Shown: positions 1,239-60,454 of the stretch, piece after piece
Numbering within the stretch: position 1 is the stretch's first letter
How the letters are laid out: each line of letters begins with the position of its first letter
NCBI GenBank assembly: GCA_028030915.1
Contig: GCA_028030915.1_4867.1
Origin: a phage
DNA: 64,000 bases
Direction: 5' to 3' (one strand)
Notes under the pieces: generated by a model
What the model was told of the DNA's origin: nothing
What the model saw: only the letters and a program-made list of their open reading frames with translations
Database searches by the model: none
Translations under genes and position numbers: made by a program

Positions 1239-1263
1239 CTCACCTAAGTAATATATATCTCAG
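1239..1263 (-). promoter_or_regulatory. conserved intergenic motif A (candidate phage promoter), copy 1
   Basis: Plus-strand ctcacctaagtaatatatatctcag; minus-strand reading ctgagatatatattacttaggtgag contains TATATTAC; the 22-mer ctcacctaagtaatatatatct is identical to 60430-60451; lies between a terminator and the next start codon. Confidence 0.4.
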
Positions 1264-1282
1264 TTCTTTTTGAATGCAATTA

Positions 1283-1324
1283 ATAAAATAAAAAGACTCA
1301 CCCGTATCCGAAGATAGGATGAGC
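1283..1324 (-). terminator. intrinsic terminator (UUCG-tetraloop hairpin plus U-tract on minus-strand RNA)
   Basis: Plus-strand aataaaataaaaaga then ctcacccgtatccgaagataggatgag; on minus RNA this is a hairpin with UUCG loop followed by a U-rich tract, just after the stop of gene 1335-1928. Confidence 0.6.
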
Positions 1325-1334
1325 CTAGTGGAGC

Positions 1335-1928
1335 TTAGACTTGCAGTAGTGTCCCCGAGTAAGTAATCGGGTCATTGTAGAACGCTTCACACTGGAGGCA
1401 AATACCATCAATGTTCGGTTCTTCAGTTCGCGACCATATCGCCGCACCACCTTGCAAAATCCATTCTCGACAGTTACGACCATAATCGTCGACAAGCAAA
1501 TTACCTCGCGAGGCGTAAGCTTTCTTCTGCCCTGAACTTTCGGTGACGATGACTTTGTCAGCTGGTACCCCAAAGTGCTTCATGAACCACCGTTGTTTTG
1601 AATCCACAACCAATTGGTGGTCGTAGTGATCTTCTGACCCAGAGGTGAGTATTGCCCAACTGTCGCAAAGTCTATCTACCGTTTCCAGGATTCGCTCTAC
1701 ACCCTCAATTGGTTCGAGTTTGTAAAACAAGTCAGGATCGTTCTGATACATCGAACGAACCAAACTACGACGACGGAGTTCAGGTAATGCGTTAAACTCT
1801 TTAATCGTCATTCCGGGAAAATGTGTGGATAAAACGTATTTACGCCAGCGTGCAAAAACGCCATCGCTATCCAGATAAAACATTTTCTTGTCCTTATTTT
1901 GTTCCCCAACACATGAAACCAACGTCAT
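1335..1928 (-). CDS. HAD-superfamily 5'(3')-deoxyribonucleotidase-like protein
   Basis: ORF track 197 aa; motif YLDSDGV (HAD motif I DxDG) near N-terminus and LVDDY near C-terminus; probable true start at internal Met (about 1883). Confidence 0.55.
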   Translation of the reverse strand: MTLVSCVGEQNKDKKMFYLDSDGVFARWRKYVLSTHFPGMTIKEFNALPELRRRSLVRSMYQNDPDLFYKLEPIEGVERILETVDRLCDSWAILTSGSEDHYDHQLVVDSKQRWFMKHFGVPADKVIVTESSGQKKAYASRGNLLVDDYGRNCREWILQGGAAIWSRTEEPNIDGICLQCEAFYNDPITYSGTLLQV

Positions 1929-1936
1929 GTAAAAAA

Positions 1937-2281
1937 TTACATCTGCTTTATTGCCATATTCGAACGATACGGCTCAGTGAGTAGAAAGTAAGTACGGCGA
2001 TAGTCGATTGTCACTCCAGCCTCTTTAATGTCGCAATAGAGTGCCATGATATCTAGCGACGCGATTCCGGAGATAATGTTATTAACCTTGCGTTTTGTAT
2101 CAAAACGTTCCGATAAGATTTCGGCAAGCACTTCCTTACCAGCCTTTCCTTGGATGGCGTAGATCGCTAACGCTTTCAGTTCTTCCGGCGTCAAACAACG
2201 AAGGGTCGGAGGTATTGCGATGTTAACGACCTTCATGCGTCCCCCTACTGTAGTGGTTTTTAGTTGTGATTTGCAGACCAC
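1937..2281 (-). CDS. hypothetical protein (114 aa)
   Basis: ORF track; gene array context. Confidence 0.5.
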   Translation of the reverse strand: MVCKSQLKTTTVGGRMKVVNIAIPPTLRCLTPEELKALAIYAIQGKAGKEVLAEILSERFDTKRKVNNIISGIASLDIMALYCDIKEAGVTIDYRRTYFLLTEPYRSNMAIKQM

Positions 2282-2291
2282 GAACTAGGCA

Positions 2292-2921
2292 CTACGGTGA
2301 AACGACGTATTCGTTCAGTGCGTTATCAAAAGCAGTACGCGCAGTGGCGACCGCCTCCGAGACCTTAACTTCACCGCGCTCCCAGTTGACGCTGATAATC
2401 AGCCGATAAAACTCGCCGGCTTTCAGCAGTTGACTGGTAGACAGGCGCACATCTTGTCCGAAACTTAAGTGATAGACAAAAACATGACCACCGTTGCGAA
2501 GTTCTGACAATCGCATCTCGCCCAGGTAAATCGGTTTGATATCCCAGTTCGACATGCGGTGTGGTACAATCCATACTTCACCCGCCCGATTCGGTTCCTG
2601 TGTCAGGTTGACCGAAGGCTGCGCTACATCACGTTCATCAAAACCGTAAAGATATAATCGTGTGGGTATTTCGATTGCAGAGAAGTTGTGACGTGCACCC
2701 TTAATCGCTCGCTCTAAATCTACCGAGCAGCAAATCCTGGGCACGGTCTTGTCTTCATCTGGCGCGCACGAAAGTGGGATACGCGGCGAAAACGTCGGTA
2801 TCTTACACTTGCTTAAATGCAGCGGCTGTTCAGTCAGTTTACGTAACGTCAACTTTTTGGCGACGTGCGGCATCTGGCGTTCACACCACCGCTCTAATGA
2901 CGGGTCGACATGTTCTGCCAT
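2292..2921 (-). CDS. hypothetical protein (209 aa)
   Basis: ORF track; gene array context. Confidence 0.55.
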   Translation of the reverse strand: MAEHVDPSLERWCERQMPHVAKKLTLRKLTEQPLHLSKCKIPTFSPRIPLSCAPDEDKTVPRICCSVDLERAIKGARHNFSAIEIPTRLYLYGFDERDVAQPSVNLTQEPNRAGEVWIVPHRMSNWDIKPIYLGEMRLSELRNGGHVFVYHLSFGQDVRLSTSQLLKAGEFYRLIISVNWERGEVKVSEAVATARTAFDNALNEYVVSP

Positions 2922-2924
2922 TTT

Positions 2925-3790: not shown

Positions 3791-4519
3791 TTACCTCATA
3801 TACAAATCCTCGAGTGGCTCTGCACGTACCGGATCGACCTGGAGTGCAGAACGGATACCCTGTTTCAGTTCCACATCTGCAATCTTGGCCAACCGGGAAG
3901 TTTTGTTCAATGAACCTGAACGCAGCGGAATAAACTGCACCCGATTCATCAAATCGCTGTCTTTTTTCAGGGTGTAGCGGAAATACGTCCGCGGGTCGCC
4001 AACCTTACGCTGTGTGTGGGCAGCATAACAGTCAGCGGTGATCTGGTCGTTAAAGACCGTAAAGCCGTTCCACGTCTTAGTGTCAGACAATAGCTCAGCG
4101 TCATCTACTGCGGTGTACCAGAAAGGCCGGTTTCCGAAGTCGTAGATGTACGAAGCGATGTTGTAGACTGGCGAGGATAGCACTTGCAGCATTCGGTTGG
4201 GGAACACCACCGTGCCGGGGTCAAAACGGAACTCGTAATACGGCACACCCTGAACGTCAATTTCCTCAAACGCCGACGGGGTAATTTCAATGAACGTCGT
4301 GACGTTCGATACCCCGTAGGTTTTGCGGTCAGTGGAGATAGCGAAAATACCGACGATTTCTACTTGCGAAGAAATTACCGCCAGCTCTTTAGCCACGAAG
4401 CCAACAGGGATGTAAATGTAACATCCCCCTTTGGTGATGGTGGCCGTGCCTTGGTCCACTAAATCTGCATGAATTTTCGTCGCGTCACGACGTGCTGTTT
4501 CAATGGCGCTCACGACCAC
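3791..4519 (-). CDS. hypothetical protein (242 aa)
   Basis: ORF track; long ORF. Confidence 0.6.
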   Translation of the reverse strand: MVVSAIETARRDATKIHADLVDQGTATITKGGCYIYIPVGFVAKELAVISSQVEIVGIFAISTDRKTYGVSNVTTFIEITPSAFEEIDVQGVPYYEFRFDPGTVVFPNRMLQVLSSPVYNIASYIYDFGNRPFWYTAVDDAELLSDTKTWNGFTVFNDQITADCYAAHTQRKVGDPRTYFRYTLKKDSDLMNRVQFIPLRSGSLNKTSRLAKIADVELKQGIRSALQVDPVRAEPLEDLYMR

Positions 4520-6341: not shown

Positions 6342-9300
6342 TTAGTTGATTTTAGCCGGCAAGGCTGGGACGTCTTCACCATCTAAGATGCGTCCGATGT
6401 TCTCCCCACCACGATACCCGACAGCGTTGGTGGTTCCGATGCGCATGATAGAACCCACGATACGTGCGTCGACGGAATCACGACCAAAGATAATGTCGAG
6501 TTCCTGCCCGTCTTCCGTTTTGTTGGTTCCATACATCACTTCCTGAACCGTCGTTTTCAGCTGGTTAGCAATAACCATCTTATCCGCTGCTGCCATCTCT
6601 ACCCGGTGTGTGATGTAGAATCGGACACACAGGCTATTGTACGCTAACGGCACCCCCTCAACACGAAAATCACCGTTGACTCGACCGTCCTTCGGCTCGT
6701 CACGTTTGAGAGCCAGCGCAGTCTTCCGACGTATACGGTCGTATTTACGAACCATCTCCGCCAAAGACGGGGTCATATCTTCAACCTCGCCGTGGTAAAC
6801 CACTTCGATTTTGTCGATAAACCCACGAACACCAGAGCGTGGTGCAAAGGAGCTTAACTCACGCAGCGTTTCCGCTGCTTCTTTACTGAACCCGCTCATA
6901 TCGCCGGTCAGGTTGTCGGTGAAGGTGCATAGAATTGAATCCACGTCTACGTGGTCCCCTTCTTTTACCATCTCCAACAGGTTCTGGGTAAACGTCATTG
7001 TGACTTCTTTGAGTTTGGTAACATCGGCTTCAGCCTTAGCAGCGAACCGCTCACTAATGGCGTTGGAGTCCTCAATTACTTCTTCCCCTTCAATCAAAGC
7101 GACAGTTGCCAGTATCCCGTTTTTAAAGCTGACCTGCGTTGGATCGTAGATGTCTGGTTCAAAGTGTTGTTCGTTGTACGTGATAACGGCACCGGCGGGG
7201 AGTTTATCTCCGCGCTTCCATTTCGTTACCAGGGTGTGTGGGTAGTAAGTCCCTTCGTGTGGACCGAACCAACGGCCCAGTGGGAAAGCTTCTTCCTCTC
7301 CGTCGTCGTATTTGATTTTAACGTGGTCGTTAAGAACCTCCACAATCTTGCCTGGTTTATCGATTACGCGTGCGTGCTTCACAGAAGTACGGTGTGCCAC
7401 GAACTTTTCTTGCTCGGTACGATACGGTGTGGTGGTTGCGCCAACACAACTGGTCGCAGAACCGAATTGAATCCCAACGAAGTTCTGACGCTTAGCATCG
7501 TCCATCAGGGTATCCGGCACCAAGCCATCAATAAATGACAGTGCCTCACCTGGCTTCAGTTTATCGAGGTCCTTTTTAAAGGTCGTGCCGTCCACGGTGT
7601 CGTAACGCGGATTGTTTGTTGCAAAGGCGGTGATACCTACGTCGCCGTTATCGACCGTGTTACCGGAGACAATCCCCAGGTCGCTCGGTTGGAATTCACG
7701 GGTACTGTAGACCATGGTTTTGCGGTTACGACCGCCTGTACCGCCCATGGTAACGACATCCTTTTCTTTGATGTTCTGTACCGGGTTTGCGCCAGGTGCC
7801 AGCAGAACAGACGGGTCGGAGTTAATTGCACCCCACACCATGTCCTGCGTCAACTCAAACTTACGATTCGAGTTAGGCGCGTTGTTGTAGTTACGCATCG
7901 CCCGCACCATCGCGGTGTAGATGTGATACGAAATACGTTGGTTCCCGATGAACATCATTTCGTCACCGTTAATTTCCGGTAACGTGTGGTCCGTCTGCAG
8001 CAGTTCGTTAGAACGCTCCAGTAAGCCGATAAAGGTTTCCGGCTCGCCCATTTTCCTGAGGATACGCGCGTGCATGTCATCAACAAATGCGGTCCGCATC
8101 AGTTTCAGCTCTTTGATGTAGCGAGGTGTTAGCCCATCTGCATCACGTAACAGGTTCAGATAAATGTCTTCCCGGTCAACTTCCGACTCGGTATACGTGG
8201 TAAAGTGTTTGATGTAACGGTCTAAGCCGTTGACAATCATCCTCTGTTGATCGTTCTCGCAGACAATTGCAATTTTCGCATCCTGGAGACGAATAATGGA
8301 GTCGAACTGACCTTTATCGATACGTTGTCCGACAGAGAGAACCTCGTAACTGATACCAAAGTGTTTCAACATCCCGGTTAACCCGAGATAGTACGCAAAC
8401 ACAAAGCCCAGCGAGATTGATTTGCCCATCAGTGACAGTTCGGTCATTTCTCGTGGAGCCTTAGAGGTGTCCACGCCAAAGACCTCGGCGAGTGTACCCA
8501 GTGGTTCGGTCTTATCCTTATCCACTCGATAAAGCTGGGAGTTTTTATCCATACCGACGATGACATGACTCCGCGGTTTCTTCGCCACAGGTACCAGCTC
8601 GACACGGTCCGCGTCTGCCAGTTGCCCTTCGTTAAAGAATGCCGCTTTCTGTTTAATGTCAAAGCTCCATTGGTACCCAATTGCGTTGAACGCTGCTACA
8701 CGACGCGCCACTTCGGTGTACTGACGCGGCAGTTTAGACAACGGATCGAACACATTCGCCAGTTTTGCATCAGTGATTTCGGTGTTCTTTGGATCGACCG
8801 CGCGAGTAATAATCGCGTTAGTGAGCCAACGTCCGTAATCATTGACGACTTTATCACTGCGACGGACAAAGTTCTTCCCGTAGGCAGTGGTTAACGCTAC
8901 AGTATCGTGGGACACTTTACGGATAGGAAGATCAACACGCTGACGACGCATTGTATATTCCACACCATTTGCAACCCAAGTACCGTCTTCGGTTAATGCA
9001 GGAATTGAGAAACGTACCGTGGTTGGTTCTCCGCCAATCGGCTGAATACGCAACGTGTGGTGTTCGATATTCCCGGTAACGGAAATCTCTTTCTCAACAG
9101 TGTGATTGTGAATCGCCAAACCGAGACGCTGAGATGACGCTACTGCCCCCAGAATATCTTTCGGGAAGATTTCCTGGTTGTACTGACGAATGATTTGGTC
9201 GGTGGTATTTTCCGCCCAGGCTTCATCCGTAACTAAGCGTTCAATCTTCTTAGGCTCGGCTTTAACTTCGAGTTTCTTCGGATCGATGGTCAGACCTTCG

Positions 9301-10547
9301 CCGTACGTCTCTTTAGGATTGTACGGGTTGGGTAAGTTTACGAAACGTTTAGAAGATTCGTTCAGGAACTGATACGCTTTGGCGGTGACGCGGCCCGCTT
9401 CTGCCAGGCGCTCAACTTCCTGTTTAATCACAGCATCGTGTGGGATGGTGCGTTCTACGACGATGGTGGTTGGTTTGACATCTTCTTTCGGCGCTTCGAT
9501 GACCAGATCTTCTTTCTCATCGAACTCATGATCGTTCAATATATCGTCAACGTTGTCGCTTTGTGTTGCTTCATCGTCGACGATATCGAGGCTTTCTTCC
9601 GGTTTGCTGGTAACAGATTCAACAACATCGTCGTCCTCTCCCAGATGTACGCGTTCGTCCCCTTCCGGTGTAACGAACTCGTCATCTTCGTAGTCGGTAG
9701 ACGGCGGTGTGGTCATCACCGTAGTCAGTGTACGGTAGAACATTCTGCCCATCTGCACGTCAGTCAAACGACCGCCGGCAGACTTACGCATTCTTTCAAT
9801 TACACCCATGTTCATGGATGTAAAACCACCGTTGTGTGTGAAGATAAAGTTCACACGTGACAGCTGGTTCATGTCCATACCGTCAAACAGTGTTGCTTGC
9901 TGATCGCCGTACACCCAACCGAACAACTCCAGTAACCACAGGAGATTAAAGTCCTTAAAGCGCTCCAGTTTGGTTTTAACACGATCGTTATACGTCATTT
10001 TAAAACGATCGAAAGAAGGCAGTACGTTACCCAGTTCGATGATGTAGTAGTTCTGACGCATGTACTCACGTGAGTCAGTTTTCATCTGGTTAGTTATCAG
10101 TAGCTGAATGTTGTGCAGACGTTCGTACCAGGACATCAGAGTATCAGGGTAGAAATAATGCGGCAGCATCGGGGTGTAGTTTTCGATGAGCAGCACTTTT
10201 GGATCGGAACGTACCACGCCGTCTTCAATCATGCGACGAATACGACGGTTGTTACGATGGTACTGGAAGATTTGACGTTCTTGGCCAACAACAGGTTTCT
10301 TACGCGGATGGCCAATAATGCCGTCTTCAGGTAGCTGGAAGTGATGGCGAATCATCGCCGGTTTTTCCAGCTGGCCAAAACACGGTGTAGTTAACGGTGG
10401 CGCTAAAACCACCTGGTCTAAATCGATGGTGTGGTAGATAGAACCACGTGGGAGCTGGAGCTTCTCCAGCGGGATAATACGCGGGCGACCGAACTCATCG
10501 GTCTTGCGCACGGTAAAGCGCTGGTTAAACTGTTTCAGAAAAATCAT
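6342..10547 (-). CDS. large protein (1401 aa); possibly second RNA polymerase large-subunit-like or virion protein, family not resolved
   Basis: Uninterrupted 4.2-kb ORF starting 19 nt downstream of the beta'-like gene; acidic low-complexity segment (DYEDDEFVTPEGDERVHLGEDDDVVESV); no canonical beta/beta' motif confirmed by eye. Confidence 0.75.
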   Translation of the reverse strand: MIFLKQFNQRFTVRKTDEFGRPRIIPLEKLQLPRGSIYHTIDLDQVVLAPPLTTPCFGQLEKPAMIRHHFQLPEDGIIGHPRKKPVVGQERQIFQYHRNNRRIRRMIEDGVVRSDPKVLLIENYTPMLPHYFYPDTLMSWYERLHNIQLLITNQMKTDSREYMRQNYYIIELGNVLPSFDRFKMTYNDRVKTKLERFKDFNLLWLLELFGWVYGDQQATLFDGMDMNQLSRVNFIFTHNGGFTSMNMGVIERMRKSAGGRLTDVQMGRMFYRTLTTVMTTPPSTDYEDDEFVTPEGDERVHLGEDDDVVESVTSKPEESLDIVDDEATQSDNVDDILNDHEFDEKEDLVIEAPKEDVKPTTIVVERTIPHDAVIKQEVERLAEAGRVTAKAYQFLNESSKRFVNLPNPYNPKETYGEGLTIDPKKLEVKAEPKKIERLVTDEAWAENTTDQIIRQYNQEIFPKDILGAVASSQRLGLAIHNHTVEKEISVTGNIEHHTLRIQPIGGEPTTVRFSIPALTEDGTWVANGVEYTMRRQRVDLPIRKVSHDTVALTTAYGKNFVRRSDKVVNDYGRWLTNAIITRAVDPKNTEITDAKLANVFDPLSKLPRQYTEVARRVAAFNAIGYQWSFDIKQKAAFFNEGQLADADRVELVPVAKKPRSHVIVGMDKNSQLYRVDKDKTEPLGTLAEVFGVDTSKAPREMTELSLMGKSISLGFVFAYYLGLTGMLKHFGISYEVLSVGQRIDKGQFDSIIRLQDAKIAIVCENDQQRMIVNGLDRYIKHFTTYTESEVDREDIYLNLLRDADGLTPRYIKELKLMRTAFVDDMHARILRKMGEPETFIGLLERSNELLQTDHTLPEINGDEMMFIGNQRISYHIYTAMVRAMRNYNNAPNSNRKFELTQDMVWGAINSDPSVLLAPGANPVQNIKEKDVVTMGGTGGRNRKTMVYSTREFQPSDLGIVSGNTVDNGDVGITAFATNNPRYDTVDGTTFKKDLDKLKPGEALSFIDGLVPDTLMDDAKRQNFVGIQFGSATSCVGATTTPYRTEQEKFVAHRTSVKHARVIDKPGKIVEVLNDHVKIKYDDGEEEAFPLGRWFGPHEGTYYPHTLVTKWKRGDKLPAGAVITYNEQHFEPDIYDPTQVSFKNGILATVALIEGEEVIEDSNAISERFAAKAEADVTKLKEVTMTFTQNLLEMVKEGDHVDVDSILCTFTDNLTGDMSGFSKEAAETLRELSSFAPRSGVRGFIDKIEVVYHGEVEDMTPSLAEMVRKYDRIRRKTALALKRDEPKDGRVNGDFRVEGVPLAYNSLCVRFYITHRVEMAAADKMVIANQLKTTVQEVMYGTNKTEDGQELDIIFGRDSVDARIVGSIMRIGTTNAVGYRGGENIGRILDGEDVPALPAKIN

Positions 10548-10565: not shown

Positions 10566-12179
10566 TCATTTCAACAGCGCAGCAGTCGTTCTTTTAATCA
10601 CGTTGTTAACCGGATTGATTTTGAAACTGCCGTCTGTTGCAAACCAGTAGTTTTTCGAACTGACCCACTTCCGATTTTCCTCGAGCGCTTCGGTTGACAT
10701 CGGGCAGTTTGCTGAGCCGGTGTCACCATCGTAGTCACCACCCAATCCACCTAATCGGGATGGATGTGGTGCCATGGATTCCACAAAGGTTTTCACGGTA
10801 CGGTCAGGGAAGCTAATTGCACCCTTCTCTTTTAACGTGACCCAATCGTCTTCCAGTTCATGCAAATAGAGGGAAGAGGTGGTGGTCTCCAATCTTATGG
10901 TCGAGGAGTAAGTCGAACCGCGTCCCGTAACCGGATAACGCGTGATGAACGAGAAGTAGTCATTCCAAATATCGTAACCTGACAAATAGAGGAGTTCTGC
11001 TAAGCTCAGTCCGCGGACAAGCTTACGGTCACGTCCTTCCGGCAGGTCTTCAATATCGTAAAAGATTTTGAAGCTGCGTTTGTCTTGGTAGATTAATGCC
11101 ACGTAATGGTCCGGATCAATCATCAGCGGTTTATGTCGAAGCTCGCGCGCTTCCATTCTGTTGATGAGTGTTTCGATGCCATCGTCGGTAGTGAAAAGGT
11201 CATACACCCGCCCGGAGACTTCCAGGAACTCACGCTTGAGTGTTTTGGTGTTAACGCCGTATAAGTTGCCGTCCCCTGCCCGGATGTTACTGAGGTAACG
11301 TTCACGGATGTGGTATTGAGCCACAGGCAGTAATGCCTTCAGGGTTTGGTACAAACCGATACGGGTATCCGTTGGACGAATCGCATCTTCGCGACCCATG
11401 ACCTTGGAACCGGTTGAGAATGAAGACAGTACGTTACGCGTACCGTTCATTAACTTACGTGACGTCACTTTACGACGTGCAAAACCACCTTTACCGTCTT
11501 GGATGTTGAAAAAGTACATCCAGATGTCATTAAAGGTTTGTTGGAGCTTCCAGCGAACCGGGTCAGTCAGTTCCGTTCGCGTACTGCGGTCGGGGATTGC
11601 ACGTGCCAGAGAAATCAGACGGCGGTAGAGTCCGCCAATCTCTTCTTCTTGGTCGCGGCCATCCTGACGAATGACCAAATCACGTAATCCCGCAGGCAGA
11701 ACCAGCACATAGCGGCTGAGACTGACCGGACGGAACTTATTGAAGAAATCGACTGTCTCGTCGCGACGCATTGATTCGTTGCGTCCTGGCGTCAGTTGTT
11801 CGTAGTAGCGTAGGAAGAAGTTGAAGCCGGTGTCTGCACCTTTATCACTGGGCAGAGCCGGCTCGAAATCTTTTTCTTTCTCATTCCAGATAGCGAATCG
11901 CTTCCCGGAACAGATTTCTTCGTACAGCTGTTTCAGCTGGAACAACGCCAAACAAACGGTCGGCGAAATGATATCCAGTTTGATATCAATGTACGAGAAC
12001 GTTGAGTCTCGTGCCTCGCTCCCTGTGAGGCCAAATATTTCAGTTGAATACAGTCCTTCAGGGTGAAAGTTTTTCGTCAGTCCCTGAAAGGTGTCTGTTG
12101 TTGTAACTGGTTTTAAATGCGACACCAGGGACTTGTTGACGTTTAACAAGTAAAAGTCAACCCAGTTTAGCTTTCTCAC
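10566..12179 (-). CDS. multisubunit RNA polymerase beta'-like subunit, N-terminal fragment
   Basis: 537 aa; GTG start at 12179 with aggag SD; motifs aligned by eye to bacterial beta' N-terminus: EIFG (beta' KIFGP region), VLVLPAGLRDLV (beta' VLPVLPPDLRP), and GGDYDGD about 65 residues from the C-terminus (beta' NADFDGD Mg-binding motif near residue 460). Confidence 0.7.
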   Translation of the reverse strand: MRKLNWVDFYLLNVNKSLVSHLKPVTTTDTFQGLTKNFHPEGLYSTEIFGLTGSEARDSTFSYIDIKLDIISPTVCLALFQLKQLYEEICSGKRFAIWNEKEKDFEPALPSDKGADTGFNFFLRYYEQLTPGRNESMRRDETVDFFNKFRPVSLSRYVLVLPAGLRDLVIRQDGRDQEEEIGGLYRRLISLARAIPDRSTRTELTDPVRWKLQQTFNDIWMYFFNIQDGKGGFARRKVTSRKLMNGTRNVLSSFSTGSKVMGREDAIRPTDTRIGLYQTLKALLPVAQYHIRERYLSNIRAGDGNLYGVNTKTLKREFLEVSGRVYDLFTTDDGIETLINRMEARELRHKPLMIDPDHYVALIYQDKRSFKIFYDIEDLPEGRDRKLVRGLSLAELLYLSGYDIWNDYFSFITRYPVTGRGSTYSSTIRLETTTSSLYLHELEDDWVTLKEKGAISFPDRTVKTFVESMAPHPSRLGGLGGDYDGDTGSANCPMSTEALEENRKWVSSKNYWFATDGSFKINPVNNVIKRTTAALLK

Positions 12180-25903: not shown

Positions 25904-26200
25904 TTAGATAGCGACAGGCGCAGAGATTTTTTCATGAGACTGATACCCAACGATCTCAAAATCTTCGAATTTATAATCGAAGATAGATTCCGGTTTACGC
26001 TTGATGATCAGTTTCGGTAAAGGTAACGGCTCACGCGTCAGCTGCAGCTTGGCCTGCTCCAGATGATTAGAGTAGAGATGTGTGTCACCGCCCGTCCAAA
26101 TGAAATCACCCGGCACCATGTTAACCTGCTGGGCAACCATGTGCACGAGTAATGCGTAAGACGCGATGTTGAACGGCACGCCGAGGAAAAAATCCGCACT
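25904..26200 (-). CDS. thyA: thymidylate synthase, exon 2 (C-terminal 98 aa)
   Basis: Translation [25 protein letters not shown]...[16 protein letters not shown]...[41 protein letters not shown] matches the conserved ThyA C-terminus; no ATG, so it must be joined to exon 1 by splicing. Confidence 0.8.
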
Positions 26201-28035: not shown

Positions 28036-28037
28036 AA

Positions 28038-34988: not shown

Positions 34989-35018
34989 AGGTGTTATCCT
35001 ATTATGAGATGTTGTCTC

Positions 35019-35040
35019 GGATAGATAATATCTGTCTGAG
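35019..35040 (-). promoter_or_regulatory. conserved intergenic motif A, copy 2
   Basis: ggatagataatatctgtctgag; about 30 nt upstream of start 34988. Confidence 0.35.
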
Positions 35041-35064
35041 TTCTTTTTGAGATGAGGTTATCCC

Positions 35065-35535: not shown

Positions 35536-36211
35536 ACAGCGCAGTGTCCTTTACGTCAGTACCGACGTATTGAGCAAGAAAACGGGTGGACTCCTTAAAG
35601 GGGTTCACCTTATCTCTTTTTATTTGCGCGATGGCTTCTTCCGTTAATTCGCTGGTCAGCATACTCGGTCGGGTAATGGTGAAATCCGGAATCGGTTTCT
35701 GGAAATGGCCCGCGTGTTGTTCTATCCACGGGTACCAGTCGTACATTATCCAACCGTCCCATGCAGAAGCAAGTCGTCCTGGTGTAAGATCGCTGTGAGG
35801 AATAACAACGACGTCTACTTGCACTTCGTTATAGTAGTAACGCAGTTCTTCCAAAAACACATGACGTTCTTCATCATCGAGATCAGCGTATGGCCACAGG
35901 TTAAACGTTAAGACTGGCCGCTCGATAGGAGCGTGCATCTGTATCGTCATTAACATTGCCTGTACTTCGTTCTTTAGCGTAAGCAACATTTCTGTTGGCT
36001 GCGCGTTCTGCAACGCGCGTTTATCACGCTCCGCGAACTTTTTATTCCAGTCCTGAATTCCTACCACTTCGGCCCACGCATCCGTGAACCGCATCCGATA
36101 CACTTCTAAATCAAGCTTCTCTAATACATCAGGCTGCAGCACTTTCGCCCAACCAATTCGTGTATCGAAGATTGTGTCGATATCGACTAAGAAACGGCGT
36201 CCTAATCTCAT
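35483..36211 (-). CDS. hypothetical protein (242 aa)
   Basis: ORF track; 4-nt overlap with upstream gene. Confidence 0.55.
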   Translation of the reverse strand: MRLGRRFLVDIDTIFDTRIGWAKVLQPDVLEKLDLEVYRMRFTDAWAEVVGIQDWNKKFAERDKRALQNAQPTEMLLTLKNEVQAMLMTIQMHAPIERPVLTFNLWPYADLDDEERHVFLEELRYYYNEVQVDVVVIPHSDLTPGRLASAWDGWIMYDWYPWIEQHAGHFQKPIPDFTITRPSMLTSELTEEAIAQIKRDKVNPFKESTRFLAQYVGTDVKDTALFSLRRHQQDDDSQTQTP

Positions 36212-36876
36212 TCCGGGCGTCCTAAGTTGTTACCGATGTGCATTGCTTTAAAGTACGAAGACCATGTACGCGGCGCTTTTGAACTGGTACGCTCAGCCCC
36301 TTCCAGGTTGATGCGACCTTTACCGGTTTGCCGTAGCGATTGATAGAACGCACGTTGTAACGTATCGTTACCACCACGCGCCCACAGGAACTCCTGGAGC
36401 GTTGAGTCGTGTCCATCCGAGTACATGATGTACGCTTCTGGAAACGAAACACCCGAAGCTTTGGAAGGCCCTACTACCTGACCTGAGAGTTTATCGCGGA
36501 CTTTATCGTTCTTCGCCACCGCCATTTTCTTCTCTTGCATCTGCGTCTGGCGACGTGCAGGTAGCCGGAAGACTAAATGGGGGTAACGGGTACGCTGTAG
36601 GATACCGGTTTTCGGTTCCGTGAGCCACAGGCGCTGACACAAGTTCAGTCCCATCGCTTCGCAAATTTTAATATTGCGCATATGGTCAATTTTGACCTTG
36701 CCGCCAGTTGGGTTGTAAACAGGCAACCCTTCGCGCAGACGATTGAACTCTTCGTCAGACATTCGTGAGAAAGCGCGCTTGGCAGCTTCCGCGTTAATCC
36801 CGGTCGGGTCAACTAAGTTCAGTAACTGTAAAGCATAAGCTTCTGCTTTTTTTCGCCGTGCCGGGTCTAATCTCAT
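36208..36876 (-). CDS. hypothetical protein (222 aa)
   Basis: ORF track. Confidence 0.55.
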   Translation of the reverse strand: MRLDPARRKKAEAYALQLLNLVDPTGINAEAAKRAFSRMSDEEFNRLREGLPVYNPTGGKVKIDHMRNIKICEAMGLNLCQRLWLTEPKTGILQRTRYPHLVFRLPARRQTQMQEKKMAVAKNDKVRDKLSGQVVGPSKASGVSFPEAYIMYSDGHDSTLQEFLWARGGNDTLQRAFYQSLRQTGKGRINLEGAERTSSKAPRTWSSYFKAMHIGNNLGRPE

Positions 36877-41818: not shown

Positions 41819-42553
41819 TCAGTAGTTTATTTTCTCAGCGACTTCTTTACGGATGCGACACATCACCACCATCGCACCATTCGGAATTTGGCTCACGCAG
41901 TTATCCGTGTAAAACTTACCTTCACACAGATAAAAGTCCAGACACATGGCATCGGTCAGCTCGTGCCACAGGGTGCCGAAACCATACTGCCAAGGGCCGG
42001 AATGAACGACATCGTAATCGCCATCAGTTATGCCAAATGCGGCAGTAGCGGAAGACCACAGTATTGAGGAAGTGGTATAAGTGTCATACCAGTAACCGAG
42101 CAGACGATGGTTACGACGTATCTCAGCTAACCGCTCGTACATTGGGATGAATACATCTTCCACCTGCGTGACAAAATCAGCCAGCATCAACTTTTCCGTG
42201 AACCACTCGATCCACGCAAAGATTTGTTCTTCAACGTCTTGTTGGCTTAACCCCGTGGCAGTAATGCCTTCTTCGTAGGTGTAACCTTCGTAGACGTCAA
42301 CAACATTAATCTCTACATGTTCTAGCGTGAACAACCGTTCGGTGTTGATGCAGTCGTACATCTCTTGTAACCACGCAGTGAAGACTTCTATACAGACGTT
42401 GATGGCTGTGTACTTGAATTCATCGCGCAGTGGATACCACTGTGGGTTATCCTTTAGTTCGTTCTTCGCGAACGCGGGCCAATGCTTTTCGAACAACGCT
42501 TCAAAGAACTGGGGCGTGAGGTTTAAAAGCACTGGCACTTCGACTTTAAGCAT
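41819..42553 (-). CDS. hypothetical protein (244 aa)
   Basis: ORF track; SD aaggag; conserved motif 42586-42607 upstream. Confidence 0.55.
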   Translation of the reverse strand: MLKVEVPVLLNLTPQFFEALFEKHWPAFAKNELKDNPQWYPLRDEFKYTAINVCIEVFTAWLQEMYDCINTERLFTLEHVEINVVDVYEGYTYEEGITATGLSQQDVEEQIFAWIEWFTEKLMLADFVTQVEDVFIPMYERLAEIRRNHRLLGYWYDTYTTSSILWSSATAAFGITDGDYDVVHSGPWQYGFGTLWHELTDAMCLDFYLCEGKFYTDNCVSQIPNGAMVVMCRIRKEVAEKINY

Positions 42554-42585
42554 CGTGAATAAATTCTCCTTAAGGTTACGTCCCT

Positions 42586-42607
42586 GTAGATAATATCTAT
42601 CTCAGAT
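42586..42607 (-). promoter_or_regulatory. conserved intergenic motif A, copy 3
   Basis: tgtagataatatctatctcaga; about 35 nt upstream of start 42553, followed by SD aaggag. Confidence 0.35.
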
Positions 42608-43407
42608 TACTTTAAGAGATGCAAGAAGCGTGCTGCCTGTTCTGTAAAGTGAAAATACTCGATGGTATCAGGTTCGTCCGAGTGAATGTCATCCGGGTCC
42701 AGCAGGTAGCCCGAGATATCATCCGTTAAAACCCAAGCGTCTCCCTGCAGGAAAATACCCATCGGTTTTTCTACCACGGGCATCACCAAGTCGGAATAAG
42801 AGTTACCTTCTGCAACCTTTACAATGTCTTCACACGGGTCAACAATATACAGGTTGCAGAGACTACGATCTTTAAGACTGCGATGAAACATCGCTCGATC
42901 GTACCAAATAACCTGAGAACAATTATCTTCGTCACCCGCCACATCGACCAACTCTGTCCAGAAACGATGTAAGAACCAGTTCAACGCACCGGTTATTAGC
43001 TCGTTCGGTTTCAGCATTCTAACGTGTTCGTCGTACAACTCTTCCATTGTCCAGATTCGACAATGCTCACGATCGATTGTCGGTAGCGGAGGTATTTGCG
43101 GCGGGACTTGTTTAGGCATCGGTTCATCACATCTTGCGTTGTAACGCGCAATTGTTTCGGTAACCAGCTCTGCCACAACATCACAAGCCGCTTCAAATCC
43201 CCACTTGTACAACACGTCGTAATCTTCCATGGGCGCAGCACCAAACTCACGGTTCGTTGCCATCCACGACATCCATCCGTATTGCTCCACACAGTTAATC
43301 AGACTTTGTGTGTGGAGCGTGAGCGATTCACTCACGACTCGCAACATGTTACACCTCTTCTTCTCGCAGTATGCGACGGTTTGCGTAATACGCACACCAC
43401 AACCCAT
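42607..43407 (-). CDS. hypothetical protein (266 aa)
   Basis: ORF track. Confidence 0.55.
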   Translation of the reverse strand: MGCGVRITQTVAYCEKKRCNMLRVVSESLTLHTQSLINCVEQYGWMSWMATNREFGAAPMEDYDVLYKWGFEAACDVVAELVTETIARYNARCDEPMPKQVPPQIPPLPTIDREHCRIWTMEELYDEHVRMLKPNELITGALNWFLHRFWTELVDVAGDEDNCSQVIWYDRAMFHRSLKDRSLCNLYIVDPCEDIVKVAEGNSYSDLVMPVVEKPMGIFLQGDAWVLTDDISGYLLDPDDIHSDEPDTIEYFHFTEQAARFLHLLK

Positions 43408-50277: not shown

Positions 50278-50871
50278 TTACGCTTCGGCCTCAAAGAACG
50301 GCTGGTTCGGTACCACTGCATATTCGAGCACGAAAAGATGTTCTGGGGCATCTTCTGCTCGCCACAGTTTGTGACACGTTGCCAGTTTTTCCAGGATGGT
50401 CAACCAGCTGAGCTGGCAGAAAGCACGATCGCCGAAGAACAGTTTCTGCAGTGCAATCGACACATCCATATACGCCTGTTTGAAGTCGAGTTCTTTATCG
50501 TAACCCGCCGACTGTCGCCACGTCAGCACGAAGCCTGCTTCGGTTTCGTTAATTGCTGGACGTAAACCACAAATCCACATCAGCGCCAGATTAACGTTCC
50601 AGTCGAATTCGATACCTTCGTCTTCGTCATCACCAAACGCCGCGTTTAACGCATCGTAGAAACCGTGGTTCTCTGCGAACCATTCGCCGTACTCAACGTA
50701 TACCGGTGCTTCGACAGCTTCCCCATCGACTTCACCGATAGGACGCTCTACATAGTTCGGGTTGGTTTGAACGTGTTCCGCACCCGCGCGAATTAATTCG
50801 TAGACATCTTTGGCGGTGATTTGTGCGGCTGTTTTAAGACCTGGATACCAGGGGCGTGTTACGAGTGTCAA
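50278..50871 (-). CDS. hypothetical protein (197 aa)
   Basis: ORF track. Confidence 0.55.
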   Translation of the reverse strand: MTLVTRPWYPGLKTAAQITAKDVYELIRAGAEHVQTNPNYVERPIGEVDGEAVEAPVYVEYGEWFAENHGFYDALNAAFGDDEDEGIEFDWNVNLALMWICGLRPAINETEAGFVLTWRQSAGYDKELDFKQAYMDVSIALQKLFFGDRAFCQLSWLTILEKLATCHKLWRAEDAPEHLFVLEYAVVPNQPFFEAEA

Positions 50872-51590
50872 AGCAATGCTCCTTTCATGATAGTGTTATT
50901 TGCCAGTAGTGTACCGGCCGCAGGTGATATTTTGGTGTACAGCGTATCCCAGATTTTCTGAAGTTCAGCGACGCGTTGGTCGTGGTCTTCCTTCGCAAAA
51001 GCAAGCTGACGTGTTTCAGCTTTCGGTGGTGTCATTTTCGCACCGTAGAATGCTGCGTCTTTTCGGTAGCTGGCCATCCAGCGTTTCCCGACCGGTGATT
51101 TCTTTTTAATCATCGCAACAGCAGCACCCTCACCGAAGCGGTAGCCTAAAGCGATTTCGGCTGTGCTCGGCTTGCGTTTGAGTTGTTTTGTCAGATGATC
51201 CTCGATGTGTTTCATGTAAACGGCAGCAAGCTGTACAGCATACTTCGGTTTATTAAGGTCCGCATTCTTTGGGATGTTAAGTTGTTTCCCATACAGACGT
51301 ATCATGGAGCGTTTAGTGCCTGTCGTCATTTGGACAACACTACTAGCACTGCTCGATTTATTCTTACCCACGTTTTTATTAAAACGGGATTCACGATAAA
51401 TGGTGGTCGCGAGCATCCCGGCATGTACGCCTTGTTTTCGAGATGCGGTGACGATGAGAGGTTTAATCTCATTGAACTGGTCCTGGATAAGGACGAATTC
51501 TTTTTGGTGTTTGTTACTGGTGGTCTGGTAAGAAGCGTTGCTGTTGAACGTAGTCATTGCTACCAGAAGAAACAAAATGGTGCGAAACAT
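50868..51590 (-). CDS. secreted lytic transglycosylase-like protein (SLT domain with N-terminal signal peptide)
   Basis: 240 aa; N-terminal MFRTILFLLVAMTTFNSNA is signal-peptide-like; SLT-like motifs TTIYRESRFN...SSASSVVQM and ALGYRFGEGAA. Confidence 0.6.
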   Translation of the reverse strand: MFRTILFLLVAMTTFNSNASYQTTSNKHQKEFVLIQDQFNEIKPLIVTASRKQGVHAGMLATTIYRESRFNKNVGKNKSSSASSVVQMTTGTKRSMIRLYGKQLNIPKNADLNKPKYAVQLAAVYMKHIEDHLTKQLKRKPSTAEIALGYRFGEGAAVAMIKKKSPVGKRWMASYRKDAAFYGAKMTPPKAETRQLAFAKEDHDQRVAELQKIWDTLYTKISPAAGTLLANNTIMKGALL

Positions 51591-51677
51591 GGATGTATCT
51601 CCAAACGGATTTATACTTTTCCGTTCCCAATCCGGGAAGACGGCGCGGACGGCATTGTGCTCCTTTGTAATGTGCCC

Positions 51678-51697
51678 TGATGATAATATCTATTTGA
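51678..51697 (-). promoter_or_regulatory. conserved intergenic motif A, copy 4
   Basis: tgatgataatatctatttga; overlaps stop of macrodomain gene, about 95 nt upstream of start 51590. Confidence 0.3.
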
Positions 51698-52190
51698 AAC
51701 TATTTGGGATGATTTTCTCTGCTTCCCTCAGCAGGGTGTCCGGTAAATAGAATCGATAAGTCTGCTCCGTGTGCTGTAGTCGTTTCTGTAAGTGTATAAA
51801 GATTTCCAATCGCTCATGGTAACGTAACCAACCGTTAGCCATCCCTAGGGGCGGTATCGCAATCCCTCCTTCTAAGTCTTCCCCTAGTCGCGCCAGCGCA
51901 TCAATGCCGGACGTGACATAGTAAATCTGCGATTTATAGCGAAAATGGGTTTTAGTAGGAAGGAGTATTACCCCTTCCTCAGGATAACAATAGACCTCAC
52001 CGATAACGATTTGCTCTTTACGGCATTTCTGGCGATAGTCATTATAAAGCGATGGGAAGCGTTCTCGGCACGCCAAAGCAATACCCCTTCCCATCGCACC
52101 AACGCAATTAACTGTAACGACCTTGAAGCGCTCAGGCGCGTTAAACAGGTCGTGGGAGATAACGGCCTCGTCGATCAGTTCTAGTGACAT
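51690..52190 (-). CDS. macrodomain protein (DarG/TARG1-like ADP-ribose-binding or hydrolase fold)
   Basis: 166 aa; VVTVNCVGAMGRGIALACRERFP...IGEV...IAIPPLGMANG matches the NC.G.MG.GIAL...FP glycine-rich ADP-ribose-binding loop of DarG/TARG1-type macrodomains (recalled from memory). Confidence 0.65.
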   Translation of the reverse strand: MSLELIDEAVISHDLFNAPERFKVVTVNCVGAMGRGIALACRERFPSLYNDYRQKCRKEQIVIGEVYCYPEEGVILLPTKTHFRYKSQIYYVTSGIDALARLGEDLEGGIAIPPLGMANGWLRYHERLEIFIHLQKRLQHTEQTYRFYLPDTLLREAEKIIPNSFK

Positions 52191-57322: not shown

Positions 57323-57333
57323 AGAGAGGAGAG

Positions 57334-57960: not shown

Positions 57961-57978
57961 GTTTAATCCTTCTTCAAC

Positions 57979-58007: not shown

Positions 58008-58014
58008 CTCGTAT

Positions 58015-58521: not shown

Positions 58522-58534
58522 AATCCTTACGAGT

Positions 58535-58545
58535 AATAGTCGATT
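58535..58545 (-). promoter_or_regulatory. motif B, copy 2
   Basis: Plus-strand aatagtcgatt about 14 nt upstream of ATG 58521, downstream of hairpin 58553-58590. Confidence 0.3.
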
Positions 58546-58644
58546 AAAAAGGACCCTGCGGCTAAGTGTTGGGGATATCACCGCAGGGCCAAAGTGAGAT
58601 GGGTCGTCATCTCACGTTATAACATCTGTCTGAAAACTTTTCGG

Positions 58645-59028
58645 TTACTGGTCGAGCGCTACTGAACCACGCACCACCCCTTGCTGTTCAATAACCAGGA
58701 GGCGTTGTTTGGTTTTCGTATTGTAAGCGAGCGACGCGCGAAGCGTCGGGTCGCACGTTATTGTCTCTACTGGCACAATCTCTTGTGCCTTTGAGTTCAA
58801 CAGAAAGTAGTAACCTGCCGGACAAGTTTCCTCGCCCTTTGCGTGGACTAGGATGTACTCGTCGTGCCGGCTGACTTCTTCACATCTACCATCGTCGCCA
58901 GTACAGACTTCGAACGAAGGCGGGTTGTACTGATACGGTGTGCCTGGTAGTAAATCTTCTACGCTAGTTGTAGCTGAAGCAGAAGCGGTAAAGAACACCG
59001 CCACGATAATACCCATAAATCCACGCAT
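58645..59028 (-). CDS. small secreted Cys-containing protein (127 aa)
   Basis: N-terminal MRGFMGIIVAVFFTASASA looks like a cleavable signal peptide; 6 Cys in the mature part. Confidence 0.55.
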   Translation of the reverse strand: MRGFMGIIVAVFFTASASATTSVEDLLPGTPYQYNPPSFEVCTGDDGRCEEVSRHDEYILVHAKGEETCPAGYYFLLNSKAQEIVPVETITCDPTLRASLAYNTKTKQRLLVIEQQGVVRGSVALDQ

Positions 59029-59041
59029 GTTGTTTCCTTAC

Positions 59042-59452
59042 TTAAAAGTCGAGTTTATTGATGCCTACATTTTTCTTAATCGTAGGGTCATACATGATAA
59101 CCGTCAGGGCATTGTCGCCTGGGTCGCGTGTAAACTCAGCAACGGCTTCACCACTGCAGGCTTGGTTATCATTATAGTTCATGGATTCGGCTTGCCCGGT
59201 TGCCATGTTAATAACCCCGTATTCAGGGTCGCCACATGCGACACCGCCCATCGTTTTCACTAACAGGTAACGGTTGTTATCGGACATCGCAACGATCTGG
59301 CAGCTACCGCCTTGTACGTCAGAGTTCTGGCACCAGAACGGCCCGCCGTATTCGTGATCGTTAACAACTTTTGGTAACTCGATACTCCCAGCGCGAGCGA
59401 AGAAGCTAATGGCTAGAGTAGCAAGTAAAACTGGTAATAAAAAATGTTTCAT
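59042..59452 (-). CDS. small secreted Cys-containing protein (136 aa)
   Basis: Signal peptide MKHFLLPVLLATLAISFFARA; shares PFWC...C.(I/V)V motif with the next gene upstream. Confidence 0.6.
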   Translation of the reverse strand: MKHFLLPVLLATLAISFFARAGSIELPKVVNDHEYGGPFWCQNSDVQGGSCQIVAMSDNNRYLLVKTMGGVACGDPEYGVINMATGQAESMNYNDNQACSGEAVAEFTRDPGDNALTVIMYDPTIKKNVGINKLDF

Positions 59453-59474
59453 AATAGCACCTCAATTTTTTGAG

Positions 59475-59966
59475 TTATTCTGAATAGTCGATTGTTTTGA
59501 TGGTTTCCATACCGTAGTACATAGCGATGGAGGCCAGAGTTTTGGTATCCGGTCGCTGTACAAAACCGGCTCTGAAATCTTTGCTGCAAATTTTCTCCAC
59601 TGATAGTTCATCACGATTAGGGATAAGCCATAACGCGTCACCATTGTGACGGTCGACTGCACCCCACCAACCACCTGGGCAATCTTTATCGCCCGGACGG
59701 TGTACGATAGCGACACGACCGTTGAAGGATATGTCAACTACACGACACTGTTTCTTAAGCAGCTTACGCGCATTGCACCAGAACGGCTTATCATTAAGAT
59801 TGATGGTGCGGGTATATGCTGGAATGCTGCCGTTAATACTGCCCTGGAACCCGCTGAATTCGTCAGCGCGTGCCTTAGAAATCCGTAGCCCAACAACAAC
59901 TGCCATCAACAGCACAGTAAAAAGCACCACTTTGGCCAAGTGGCGATTAACGTTATTGCATTTCAT
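59475..59966 (-). CDS. small secreted Cys-containing protein (about 163 aa)
   Basis: ORF track 59475-60011; preferred start MKCNNVNRHLAKVVLFTVLLMAVVVGL (signal peptide); DKPFWCNARKLLKKQCRVV motif paralogous to 59042-59452. Confidence 0.55.
   Translation of the reverse strand: MKCNNVNRHLAKVVLFTVLLMAVVVGLRISKARADEFSGFQGSINGSIPAYTRTINLNDKPFWCNARKLLKKQCRVVDISFNGRVAIVHRPGDKDCPGGWWGAVDRHNGDALWLIPNRDELSVEKICSKDFRAGFVQRPDTKTLASIAMYYGMETIKTIDYSE
59483..59493 (-). promoter_or_regulatory. motif B, copy 3
   Basis: Plus-strand aatagtcgatt about 30 nt upstream of ATG 59452. Confidence 0.3.
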
Positions 59967-60354
59967 TTTTGATATCTCCACGATTGAGGGTGATGCGACC
60001 GACGAGCACATCGTTGTGATAAAAGCTCACAGCAACCAAATTCGGTAATTCCAGTGGCGATACACTGACCGAGGTGACTTTTGGTTGATTGCACGATATG
60101 TCGATTAACCGCTGATACATTTTCAATTTCTTATCAGCGATAACCAGCCCTGTGCAGTTCTTACCGTCCGTCAGTCTGTAGATTTGTAACTGTTCGACCT
60201 CACGCATCAGTTCCGGTTTTTCATTCGGTGCAATGCCATAATCCGAATCAGCTGATGTGTATTCAGTCACGTCTGGCTTATCGAAAGCATAAGTTGCTGC
60301 AATACCACATGCGGCCAGAACTACTACTGCTTGTAAGAACTTCTTGATAGTCAT
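59953..60354 (-). CDS. putative lipoprotein (133 aa)
   Basis: N-terminus MTIKKFLQAVVVLAACG with lipobox-like LAAC. Confidence 0.55.
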   Translation of the reverse strand: MTIKKFLQAVVVLAACGIAATYAFDKPDVTEYTSADSDYGIAPNEKPELMREVEQLQIYRLTDGKNCTGLVIADKKLKMYQRLIDISCNQPKVTSVSVSPLELPNLVAVSFYHNDVLVGRITLNRGDIKNEMQ

Positions 60355-60363
60355 GTTTTACTC

Positions 60364-60374
60364 TATAGTCGATT
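60364..60374 (-). promoter_or_regulatory. motif B, copy 4
   Basis: Plus-strand tatagtcgatt about 10 nt upstream of ATG 60354, downstream of hairpin 60380-60408. Confidence 0.3.
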
Positions 60375-60379
60375 GGTTT

Positions 60380-60408
60380 AAAAAAGAATAGGCTACCCGA
60401 GGGTAGCC
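60380..60408 (-). terminator. hairpin plus U-tract (terminator-like) in the 5' region of gene 59953-60354
   Basis: aaaaaagaata ggctacc cgag ggtagcc; lies between conserved motif 60430-60454 and the start codon, so it may act as a leader structure rather than a terminator. Confidence 0.45.
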
Positions 60409-60429
60409 AGTTGAGTTAATCTCTTAACT

Positions 60430-60454
60430 CTCACCTAAGTAATATATATCTGAG
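60430..60454 (-). promoter_or_regulatory. conserved intergenic motif A, copy 5
   Basis: ctcacctaagtaatatatatctgag; immediately after stop of gene 60460-61056. Confidence 0.4.

Follow-up and report, generated by a model that had tools for sequence, protein, structure and literature searches.

What are the recurring sequences that stand ahead of minus-strand genes in a stretch of 64,000 nucleotides of phage DNA (contig GCA_028030915.1_4867.1; the whole stretch is called the window here), and is transcription started from them? Five such sites were described in a first-pass annotation of the window, which proposed a promoter role as plausible; this role is strongly supported, though not demonstrated, by the comparison with related phages. 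We consider it very likely that these sites serve an SPN3US-like, nucleus-forming jumbo phage as early promoters, most likely recognised by its virion-packaged multisubunit RNA polymerase. That transcription starts at the sites, that they are read by the virion enzyme and not by the second polymerase of the phage, and that they act early is what we infer from the features described below. Promoters of this kind, the virion-polymerase early promoters of phiKZ-related jumbo phages, are already known, and their current understanding is unchanged; added to the first-pass annotation are a sixth copy, a longer motif, two classes, a count of 24 copies genome-wide and conservation across genera.

The window is best matched by the SPN3US group of Salmonella jumbo phages, with 98.6% identity to several SPFM and SPLA isolates (megablast). 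It is the reverse complement of approximately 162.1-224.5 kb of SPN3US (JN641803), at about 97% identity over about 62 kb and with a few indels, so that the main coding strand of the phage corresponds to the minus strand of the window. SPN3US is described as phiKZ-related and nucleus-forming, with a virion RNA polymerase (vRNAP) made up of gp241, gp218, gp240, gp42 and gp244 and a second, non-virion RNA polymerase (nvRNAP) that includes gp35 (PMC5105663). The proteins gp240, gp241, gp244 and gp218 were identified as virion/vRNAP proteins by mass spectrometry (PMC5105663), and homologues of these four components of the virion-packaged multisubunit enzyme are encoded in the window (Table 1). Complete SPN3US, complete Erwinia phage phiEaH2 (genus Erskinevirus) and the first 50 kb of phiKZ served as the comparison set.

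All five sites were recovered where they had been placed, and the 22-mer ctcacctaagtaatatatatct, claimed to be identical in two of them, is the same at 1239-1260 and 60430-60451. A search with the earlier consensus CTSAGAYAKATATTAYYTA, allowing up to two mismatches, yielded four matches in the window, all on the minus strand and all without a mismatch, where 0.03 are expected by chance and none of 100 shuffled sequences reached four; site 5 is more divergent than these four. To avoid circularity, a position matrix was trained only on 18 SPN3US copies from outside the window region. The five sites are its five best matches in the window, all on the minus strand, with 46.2, 39.0, 33.5, 29.8 and 21.2 bits, and in 100 dinucleotide shuffles the best score had a mean of 7.8 and a single maximum of 22.7 bits. 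Taken by itself, site 5 is statistically borderline, yet it is kept at the orthologous place in phiEaH2. The distance between motif and ATG, described as variable, is 31-88 nt when measured from the proximal edge. Two other statements hold in amended form: to the five copies a weak sixth, at about 58610-58651 on the minus strand, has to be added, and the sites are mostly intergenic, except that site 5 overlaps the stop codon of the upstream open reading frame (ORF) 51690..52190. The upstream part of site 4 overlaps the 3' end of ORF 42607..43407.

The SPN3US genome carries 24 copies scoring above 19 bits, all of them on the plus (main coding) strand and all co-oriented with the next gene. Intergenic DNA makes up 6.4% of this genome and holds 22 of the 24 copies (P about 1e-24), which is far from the equal frequency inside genes and on both strands that would speak against a promoter role. 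The next-best matches on the minus strand of SPN3US are reverse readings of palindromic copies. In phiEaH2, a member of a different genus, 22 copies with the same properties lie on one strand, and each of the five window sites has its orthologue among them: that of site 1 is found at 148038 and that of site 5 at 98733, site 3 is nearly identical, and the core of site 4 (AAATAGATATTATCT) is kept amid otherwise diverged sequence. When 1.2 kb around site 2 was compared with all phage records, only the motif-bearing 38-49 nt still aligned to Erwinia phages.

The 46 copies (24 from SPN3US, 22 from phiEaH2) were aligned and numbered from the conserved G seven bases past the core as +1; together they carry about 41 bits. 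The first-pass annotation had given the motif 19-25 nt, and the repeated motif is real, but the unit that is conserved extends further, over about 42 nt with conserved positions from -32 to +2, and includes an A-rich block near -30 and the G past the core. In the -30 region A-29 occurs in 46/46 copies, A-28 in 39/46 and T-32 in 35/46. The -20 block TTTCAGAT occupies -23 to -16, with TTT at -23 to -21 and CAGAT at -20 to -16. It is followed at -15 to -5 by the core A(G/T)ATATTA(Y)CT, in which A-13, T-12, T-10 and A-8 are invariant (46/46) and T-9 is found in 43/46 copies, with A-15 and G/T-14 on its upstream side and Y-7, C-6, T-5, T-1 and A+2 on its downstream side as consensus. A G stands at the predicted +1, after N6, in 45/46 copies and in all five window sites; this is a feature of the sequence only. 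According to the proposed mechanism, vRNAP injected together with the DNA would recognise an element of about 35-40 bp, composed of the A-29 block, TTTCAGAT and the A(G/T)ATATTA(Y)CT core, and transcription would start at the near-invariant G, on the minus strand at the positions listed as predicted +1 in Table 1.

The AT-rich hexamer (TATATT or TATTAT) about 7 nt before the presumed start is a likeness to the -10 element of sigma-70 promoters and to T4-type early promoters, and the sites might accordingly be host sigma-70 promoters read by the Salmonella RNA polymerase with TATATT or TATTAT as the -10 hexamer. Both hexamers agree with TATAAT at 5/6 positions, the conserved G lies about 7 nt downstream, and 4/22 phiEaH2 copies pass a -35/-10 test (TTGACA, spacer of 16-18 nt, TATAAT; at least 4/6 per hexamer and 9/12 overall). 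However, 0/24 SPN3US copies pass it, and the regions scanned at sites 1-3 contain no match on the motif strand. The motif differs from sigma-70 and T4-type promoters in having no TTG at -35: upstream it is ATTAAAAA that is conserved, the bases at the place of TTG vary, and strong conservation falls into the would-be spacer (CAGAT) and the discriminator. If the hexamer is set so that the conserved G is the start, the best-conserved class ends its -10 in C and not in T. The information content of about 41 bits far exceeds that of sigma-70 promoters, and related phages transcribe without the host polymerase. We therefore regard a sigma-70 origin of the signal as very improbable.

Two forms of the core can be distinguished. 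Class I has the core TATATTAC with T-14 and C-7 (CAGATATATATTACYTAGGT-GAG) and comprises sites 1 and 2 and seven SPN3US copies, whereas class II has GATATTATC with G-14 and T-7 (CAGATAGATATTATCTnnnn-G), comprises sites 3 to 5 and accounts for about two thirds of the copies. Sites 3 to 5 carry GATATTAT, two positions off TATATTAC. Intermediate forms exist, e.g. SPN3US 4431 and 238185, and the copies are therefore treated as one family with two preferred forms.

The sequence TATATTAC had been named in the first-pass annotation as the phiKZ early-promoter core. In the first 50 kb of phiKZ it occurs seven times, always just upstream of genes: all copies lie on the coding strand and none on the other, 42-80 nt before the start codon, and 7/7 are followed by N6-G. 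One of them stands ahead of PHIKZ054; differential RNA sequencing (dRNA-seq) found the early promoter motif at the primary start site of this gene (PMC8244752), and its promoter (GAAAAAAATTTGAGATTTATATTACTAAATTG / AAAAAAATTTGAGATTTATATTACTAAATTG) is the top phiKZ match of the SPN3US matrix, with 32.5 bits. That identification is therefore correct, and class I, by its sequence, appears to differ from the phiKZ early promoter in little more than a stricter -20 block. The phiKZ early promoters, which are used by the virion RNA polymerase and of which 28-32 copies were mapped, resemble the present family in copy number, intergenic location and co-orientation with genes, and have in common with it the TATATTAC core followed by N6-G, the A-rich block near -30 and TTT(N)AGAT ahead of the core. 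They belong to a phage of another host and genus; the CAGAT block and the initial GAG are much stricter here, and the dyad-symmetric GATATTATC sub-class, about two thirds of the copies here, sets the two apart. The starts of phiKZ are mapped, whereas those in the window are predicted from sequence. In the gaps around PHIKZ042/043, at phiKZ 34895 and 35875 (plus strand), class II-like and intermediate copies were also observed (TTTAGATATTATCTTAATG and TAGATCTATATCATGTTCCTG), and so the GATATTAT variant may occur outside the SPN3US group as well.

Other phages offer similar elements. An AT-rich conserved element of about 10 nt, centred near -10, proved to be an early promoter wherever tested (PMC7598289). 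The early promoters of Bacillus phage AR9 read AAATATATATTAT-(6N)-G(+1), and phiKZ and phiR1-37 also start 6 nt past the element (PMC5312081); AR9 and the sites described here have in common the core ATATATTAT/C and its distance from the initiating G. The AR9 promoters were predicted by over-representation, later confirmed by dRNA-seq and found to be independent of new protein synthesis (PMC5312081). AR9 differs in its uracil-containing DNA, its position outside the Chimalliviridae and in having no described CAGAT block or dyad-symmetric class. The early promoters of phiKZ and 201phi2-1 are conserved at -10, -20 and -30 (PMC11512511, PMC8244752). With 201phi2-1 the sites have in common, by its published description, these three blocks and the location ahead of hypothetical genes (PMC11512511); only six early promoters were mapped in that phage. 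A full-text literature search for the literal TATATTAC returned unrelated papers only, and the accessible SPN3US literature makes no mention of promoters. A predicted SPN3US motif is probably already shown in Lavysh 2016 (Virology 495:185), where motifs were reportedly predicted for all phages of this kind.

The genes behind the copies bear on the question of which polymerase reads them. One SPN3US copy lies 41 nt ahead of gp34 (gp34 and gp35 are nvRNAP subunits), and two others precede gp22-gp23, of which gp23 is annotated as an RNA polymerase beta subunit outside the vRNAP set. No copy is found directly upstream of the vRNAP genes in the window (gp241, gp240, gp244 and gp218). In phiKZ and AR9 the nvRNAP genes are early and the virion polymerase genes are not, and the placement of the copies here agrees with this, so that the downstream genes would fit an early class; most of those other than the nvRNAP genes are small and of unknown function. 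A different assignment would make the sites promoters of nvRNAP, and thus middle instead of early, or would leave class I early and make class II later. Class II indeed has G at -14 and T at -7, two coupled departures from the early core of phiKZ, site 5 lies ahead of an SLT transglycosylase gene, and some nvRNAP genes of 201phi2-1 are under middle promoters (PMC11512511). On the other hand, class II equals class I at 19/21 core positions and agrees with it in the -29 A, the -20 block and the +1 G; the middle motif of phiKZ (TACT at -22 after an A-rich repeat) and its late motif (TATG) look different; and the nvRNAP genes preceded by copies must be transcribed before nvRNAP exists. A middle class, for all or some of the sites, is in our view quite improbable. 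Among the six window genes behind the sites, five have no Pfam domain and belong only to PHROG families of unknown function, while the remaining one, behind site 5, has an SLT transglycosylase domain. The suggestion that the nuclear-shell protein is SPN3US gp22, which has two copies upstream and adjoins an nvRNAP gene in the manner of phiKZ gp54, was dropped, since a sequence search of the PDB was empty and published work gives another gene number.

In class II the core TAGATA-T-TATCTA forms a perfect 6+1+6 palindrome, whereas in class I only 4/6 pairs are complementary. At site 3 a 25-nt near-palindrome (35016-35040) lies in a gap of 76 nt between divergent genes. Read on the plus strand, site 3 is again the motif (CGGATAGATAATATCTGTCT-G, with the G at 35038; 30.4 bits), 27 nt ahead of ORF 35065..35535, which encodes a gp220 homologue, and the site may be a bidirectional promoter. 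The SPN3US copies 7394 and 15618 likewise lie in divergent gaps and have high reverse scores. The palindrome with its flanking CA…TG, the near-palindrome of site 3 between divergent genes and the presence in the phage of a putative transcriptional regulator (SPN3US gp101) would also suit operators of a dimeric DNA-binding regulator in place of promoters. This is slightly less probable even than sigma-70 promoters: class I belongs to the same family and is not palindromic, the asymmetric features (-29 A block and +1 GA) point to the downstream gene in 46/46 copies, and the mapped promoters of phiKZ and AR9 are closely matched.

The plus strand of site 3 scores, in addition, as a hairpin followed by TTCTTTTT, and long identical repeats could promote recombination, so that the sites could be imagined as structural or recombination elements, either antisense terminators (palindrome plus T-run) or repeated cassettes without a transcriptional role. 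To this we assign next to no probability. On the coding strand no U-run lies past the motif; the terminator-like reading is seen only in the antisense direction of site 3, whose AT-rich stem has only four G-C pairs, and an antisense terminator was rejected on these grounds. Class I lacks a hairpin of this type, most sites have a non-coding plus strand, and conservation across genera at orthologous gene starts points to a role in gene expression.

In all 15 distinct class I copies of SPN3US and phiEaH2 a contiguous hairpin of 5-9 bp begins at most 3 nt from the predicted +1. The stems vary in sequence (ATGAG/CTCAT, CGTTA/TAACG, CATTGA/TCAATG and others) and have a mean length of 7.3 bp, against 3.6 ± 0.3 in shuffled sequences, none of 2000 shuffles reaching 7.3. 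A structure that is kept while its stem sequence changes, and that is anchored at the conserved G, points to a 5'-terminal stem-loop of an mRNA, for it is what such a stem-loop would look like. An alignment of class I leaders with MAFFT and RNAalifold gave no structure, the variable loops being misaligned, and the hairpin test anchored at +1 was used instead. T7-type promoters are likewise long, near-invariant and repeated around the genome, and their transcripts start with G and a stable 5' stem-loop; the T7-type polymerase is a single-subunit enzyme unrelated in sequence, whereas the SPN3US-like phage has multisubunit, beta/beta'-like polymerases.

Class I is always followed by the transcript-initial hairpin and a AATCGACTATTA box ahead of the ribosome-binding site. 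This second box, AATCGACYAT(TA), occurs six times in the window, only on the minus strand, where 0.22 copies would be expected; four of these are 19-30 nt upstream of a start codon, directly ahead of the Shine-Dalgarno sequence. In SPN3US it is present behind 7/7 class I promoters and at a small number of other gene starts. The box might act as a second promoter, work as an element of translation or of the RNA, or belong to a mobile cassette. An IMG/VR search for the exact class I 23-mer gave roughly a dozen contigs, almost all of them 107-246 kb long, with a single fragment of 7 kb; the 23-mer stands there in 32 distinct downstream contexts (cassettes), and contigs with several copies have all of them on one strand.

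It is rather unlikely, though worth stating, that the family is more than a set of plain promoters, with class II sites serving as bidirectional promoters or operators and class I forming part of an 85-nt mobile expression cassette. Bidirectional or operator use of class II could define a separately controlled early sub-class, with site 3 as an example. The class I cassette could consist of promoter, transcript-initial hairpin, AATCGACTATTA box and ribosome-binding site and could have spread ahead of unrelated genes in SPN3US-like and Erskinevirus-like phages, site 2 adding an attenuator or short-RNA module.

Strict terminator-like hairpins occur within 125 nt upstream of 13/46 members of the family, compared with 8% of random windows, which fits transcription-unit boundaries. 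A hairpin of this kind ends just upstream of site 1 and, from its sequence, looks like such a boundary. Upstream of several copies, terminator stems recur near-identically at different loci of SPN3US and phiEaH2 (ACCCTACTCC-TTCG-GGAGTAGGGT and AGCTTACTCCC-TTCG-GGGAGTAAGCT), which suggests a conserved terminator motif like those of phiKZ and 201phi2-1. The hairpin with U-tract that the first-pass annotation had seen between motif and gene in one case is real and belongs to site 2. If this terminator works, the leader could attenuate transcription or give rise to a short RNA of about 50 nt. In 201phi2-1 some units terminate right past the start and give small RNAs derived from the 5' untranslated region (PMC11512511), an arrangement similar to that of site 2.

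The features of the individual sites are listed in Table 1.

Table 1. Candidate promoters, their genes and associated features in the window. Scores are matrix scores; MFE, minimum free energy.
Feature	Position	Strand	Description
Site 1	1239..1280	-	Class I (…TTCAAAAAGAACTGAGATATATATTACTTAGGT-GAG); predicted +1 is G at 1241; 43.8 bits, 39.0 cross-validated
Site 1 gene	790..1188	-	132-amino-acid ORF, SPN3US gp249 homologue; 53-nt leader
Terminator-like hairpin and U-run	1282..1326	-	GGCUCAUCCUAUCUUCGGAUACGGGUGAGUC UUUUUAUUUUAUU; ends just upstream of site 1; MFE -23.5 kcal/mol, z = -4.4
Site 1 leader	1208..1241	-	Hairpin GAGCGTTA-cacgt-TAACGCTT from the predicted +1 (1241..1221)
AATCGACTATTA box in site 1 leader	1219..1208	-	Directly 5' of the Shine-Dalgarno sequence
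Site 2	60430..60471	-	Class I (…TTGTAAAATATCTCAGATATATATTACTTAGGT-GAG); predicted +1 is G at 60432; 47.9 bits, 46.2 cross-validated
Site 2 gene	59953..60354	-	133-amino-acid ORF, gp180 homologue; 78-nt leader
Site 2 leader hairpin	60430..60413	-	GAGTTAA-gaga-TTAACTC, 7 bp
Site 2 leader intrinsic terminator	60408..about 60380	-	GGCTACCCTCGGGTAGCC and T-run; MFE -23.2 kcal/mol, z = -4.0
AATCGACTAT box in site 2 leader	60374..60365	-	3' of the terminator, ahead of the gene
Site 3	35016..35057	-	Class II (…CTCAAAAAGAACTCAGACAGATATTATCTATCC-GAG); predicted +1 is G at 35018; 41.2 bits
Site 3 gene	34458..34988	-	gp221 homologue; 30-nt leader
Site 4	42581..42622	-	Class II (…CTTAAAGTAATCTGAGATAGATATTATCTACAG-GGA); predicted +1 is G at 42583; 38.2 bits, 29.8 cross-validated
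Site 4 gene	41819..42553	-	gp209 homologue; 30-nt leader
Site 5	51674..51715	-	Weaker class II (…CCCAAATAGTTTCAAATAGATATTATCATCAG-GGC); predicted +1 is G at 51676; 31.1 bits, 21.2 cross-validated
Site 5 gene	50868..51590	-	gp198 homologue, SLT transglycosylase domain; 86-nt leader
Possible sixth copy, degenerate	58610..58651 (near 58619-58627)	-	CCGAAAAGTTTTCAGACAGATGTTATAACGTG-AGATG; upstream of gp184 homologue
Box downstream of sixth copy	58545..58536	-	AATCGACTAT box, preceded by the hairpin GTGAGATG-acgacc-CATCTCAC
AATCGACYAT(TA) box copies	331-340, 1210-1219, 2000-2009, 58536-58545, 59484-59493, 60365-60374	-	
vRNAP gp241 homologue	6342..10547		
vRNAP gp240 homologue	10566..12179		
vRNAP gp244 homologue	3791..4519		
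vRNAP gp218 homologue	36208..36876		

The sixth copy has the right position and orientation and a counterpart in SPN3US at 167510 (19.9 bits); its own cross-validated score is only 9.2 bits, near noise. In the leader of site 5 (51590-51676, minus strand) the blocks GTCCGCGCCGT … ACGGAAAAGT are common to the window and phiEaH2 and may form an RNA structure. The same leader contains an upstream ORF of 14 codons with a strong ribosome-binding site, which is not conserved in phiEaH2.

Several observations weigh against the interpretation as early vRNAP promoters. The accessible literature contains no transcript 5' ends, timing or polymerase-binding data for this phage, and no transcriptome of an SPN3US-like phage was found in the literature. 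Class II is dyad-symmetric and deviates from the phiKZ core, and a palindrome is unusual for a promoter. An intrinsic terminator separates site 2 from its gene, the gene behind site 5 is of the transglycosylase/endolysin type, usually a late function, and one SPN3US copy (25230) lies within a coding sequence. Site 5 and the sixth copy score near the best values of shuffled sequences.

Some further features of the window lie apart from the sites. The thymidylate synthase gene is present as two ORFs, 27274..28089 and 25904..26203 on the minus strand, which correspond to positions 1-155 and 169-266 of Pfam PF00303 and are split by an insertion of 1.1 kb (about 26201-27298) that SPN3US does not have. 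The insertion encodes a homing endonuclease of the I-TevI-like GIY-YIG type (GIY-YIG, NUMOD3 and I-TevI DNA-binding domains) and gives a sub-threshold match to the group I intron family RF00028 (28.2 bits, E = 9e-5; gathering score 50), an arrangement that resembles the td intron of T4 with I-TevI. At the gathering threshold Rfam has no match in the window. About 550 bp of SPN3US (173273-173825; most of gp193 and the end of gp192) are absent from the window phage at 52825-52864.

Any jumbo phage that encodes such polymerases can be expected to have motifs of this kind. Secondary features of note are the dyad-symmetric class, the cassette of class I, in which hairpin and AATCGACTATTA box are joined to the promoter, and the combination of promoter and terminator in the leader of site 2. 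The near-identity of class I to the phiKZ promoter suggests that the virion polymerases of chimalliviruses from Pseudomonas and from enterobacteria have kept the same way of recognising promoters, which is useful because, to our knowledge, this enzyme has never been purified and its specificity determinant is not known. If confirmed, the sites would provide a ready map of the early transcription units in SPN3US-like (Seoulvirus, Erskinevirus) jumbo phages, which serve as genetic models and biocontrol candidates, and a defined 40-bp promoter for engineering them.

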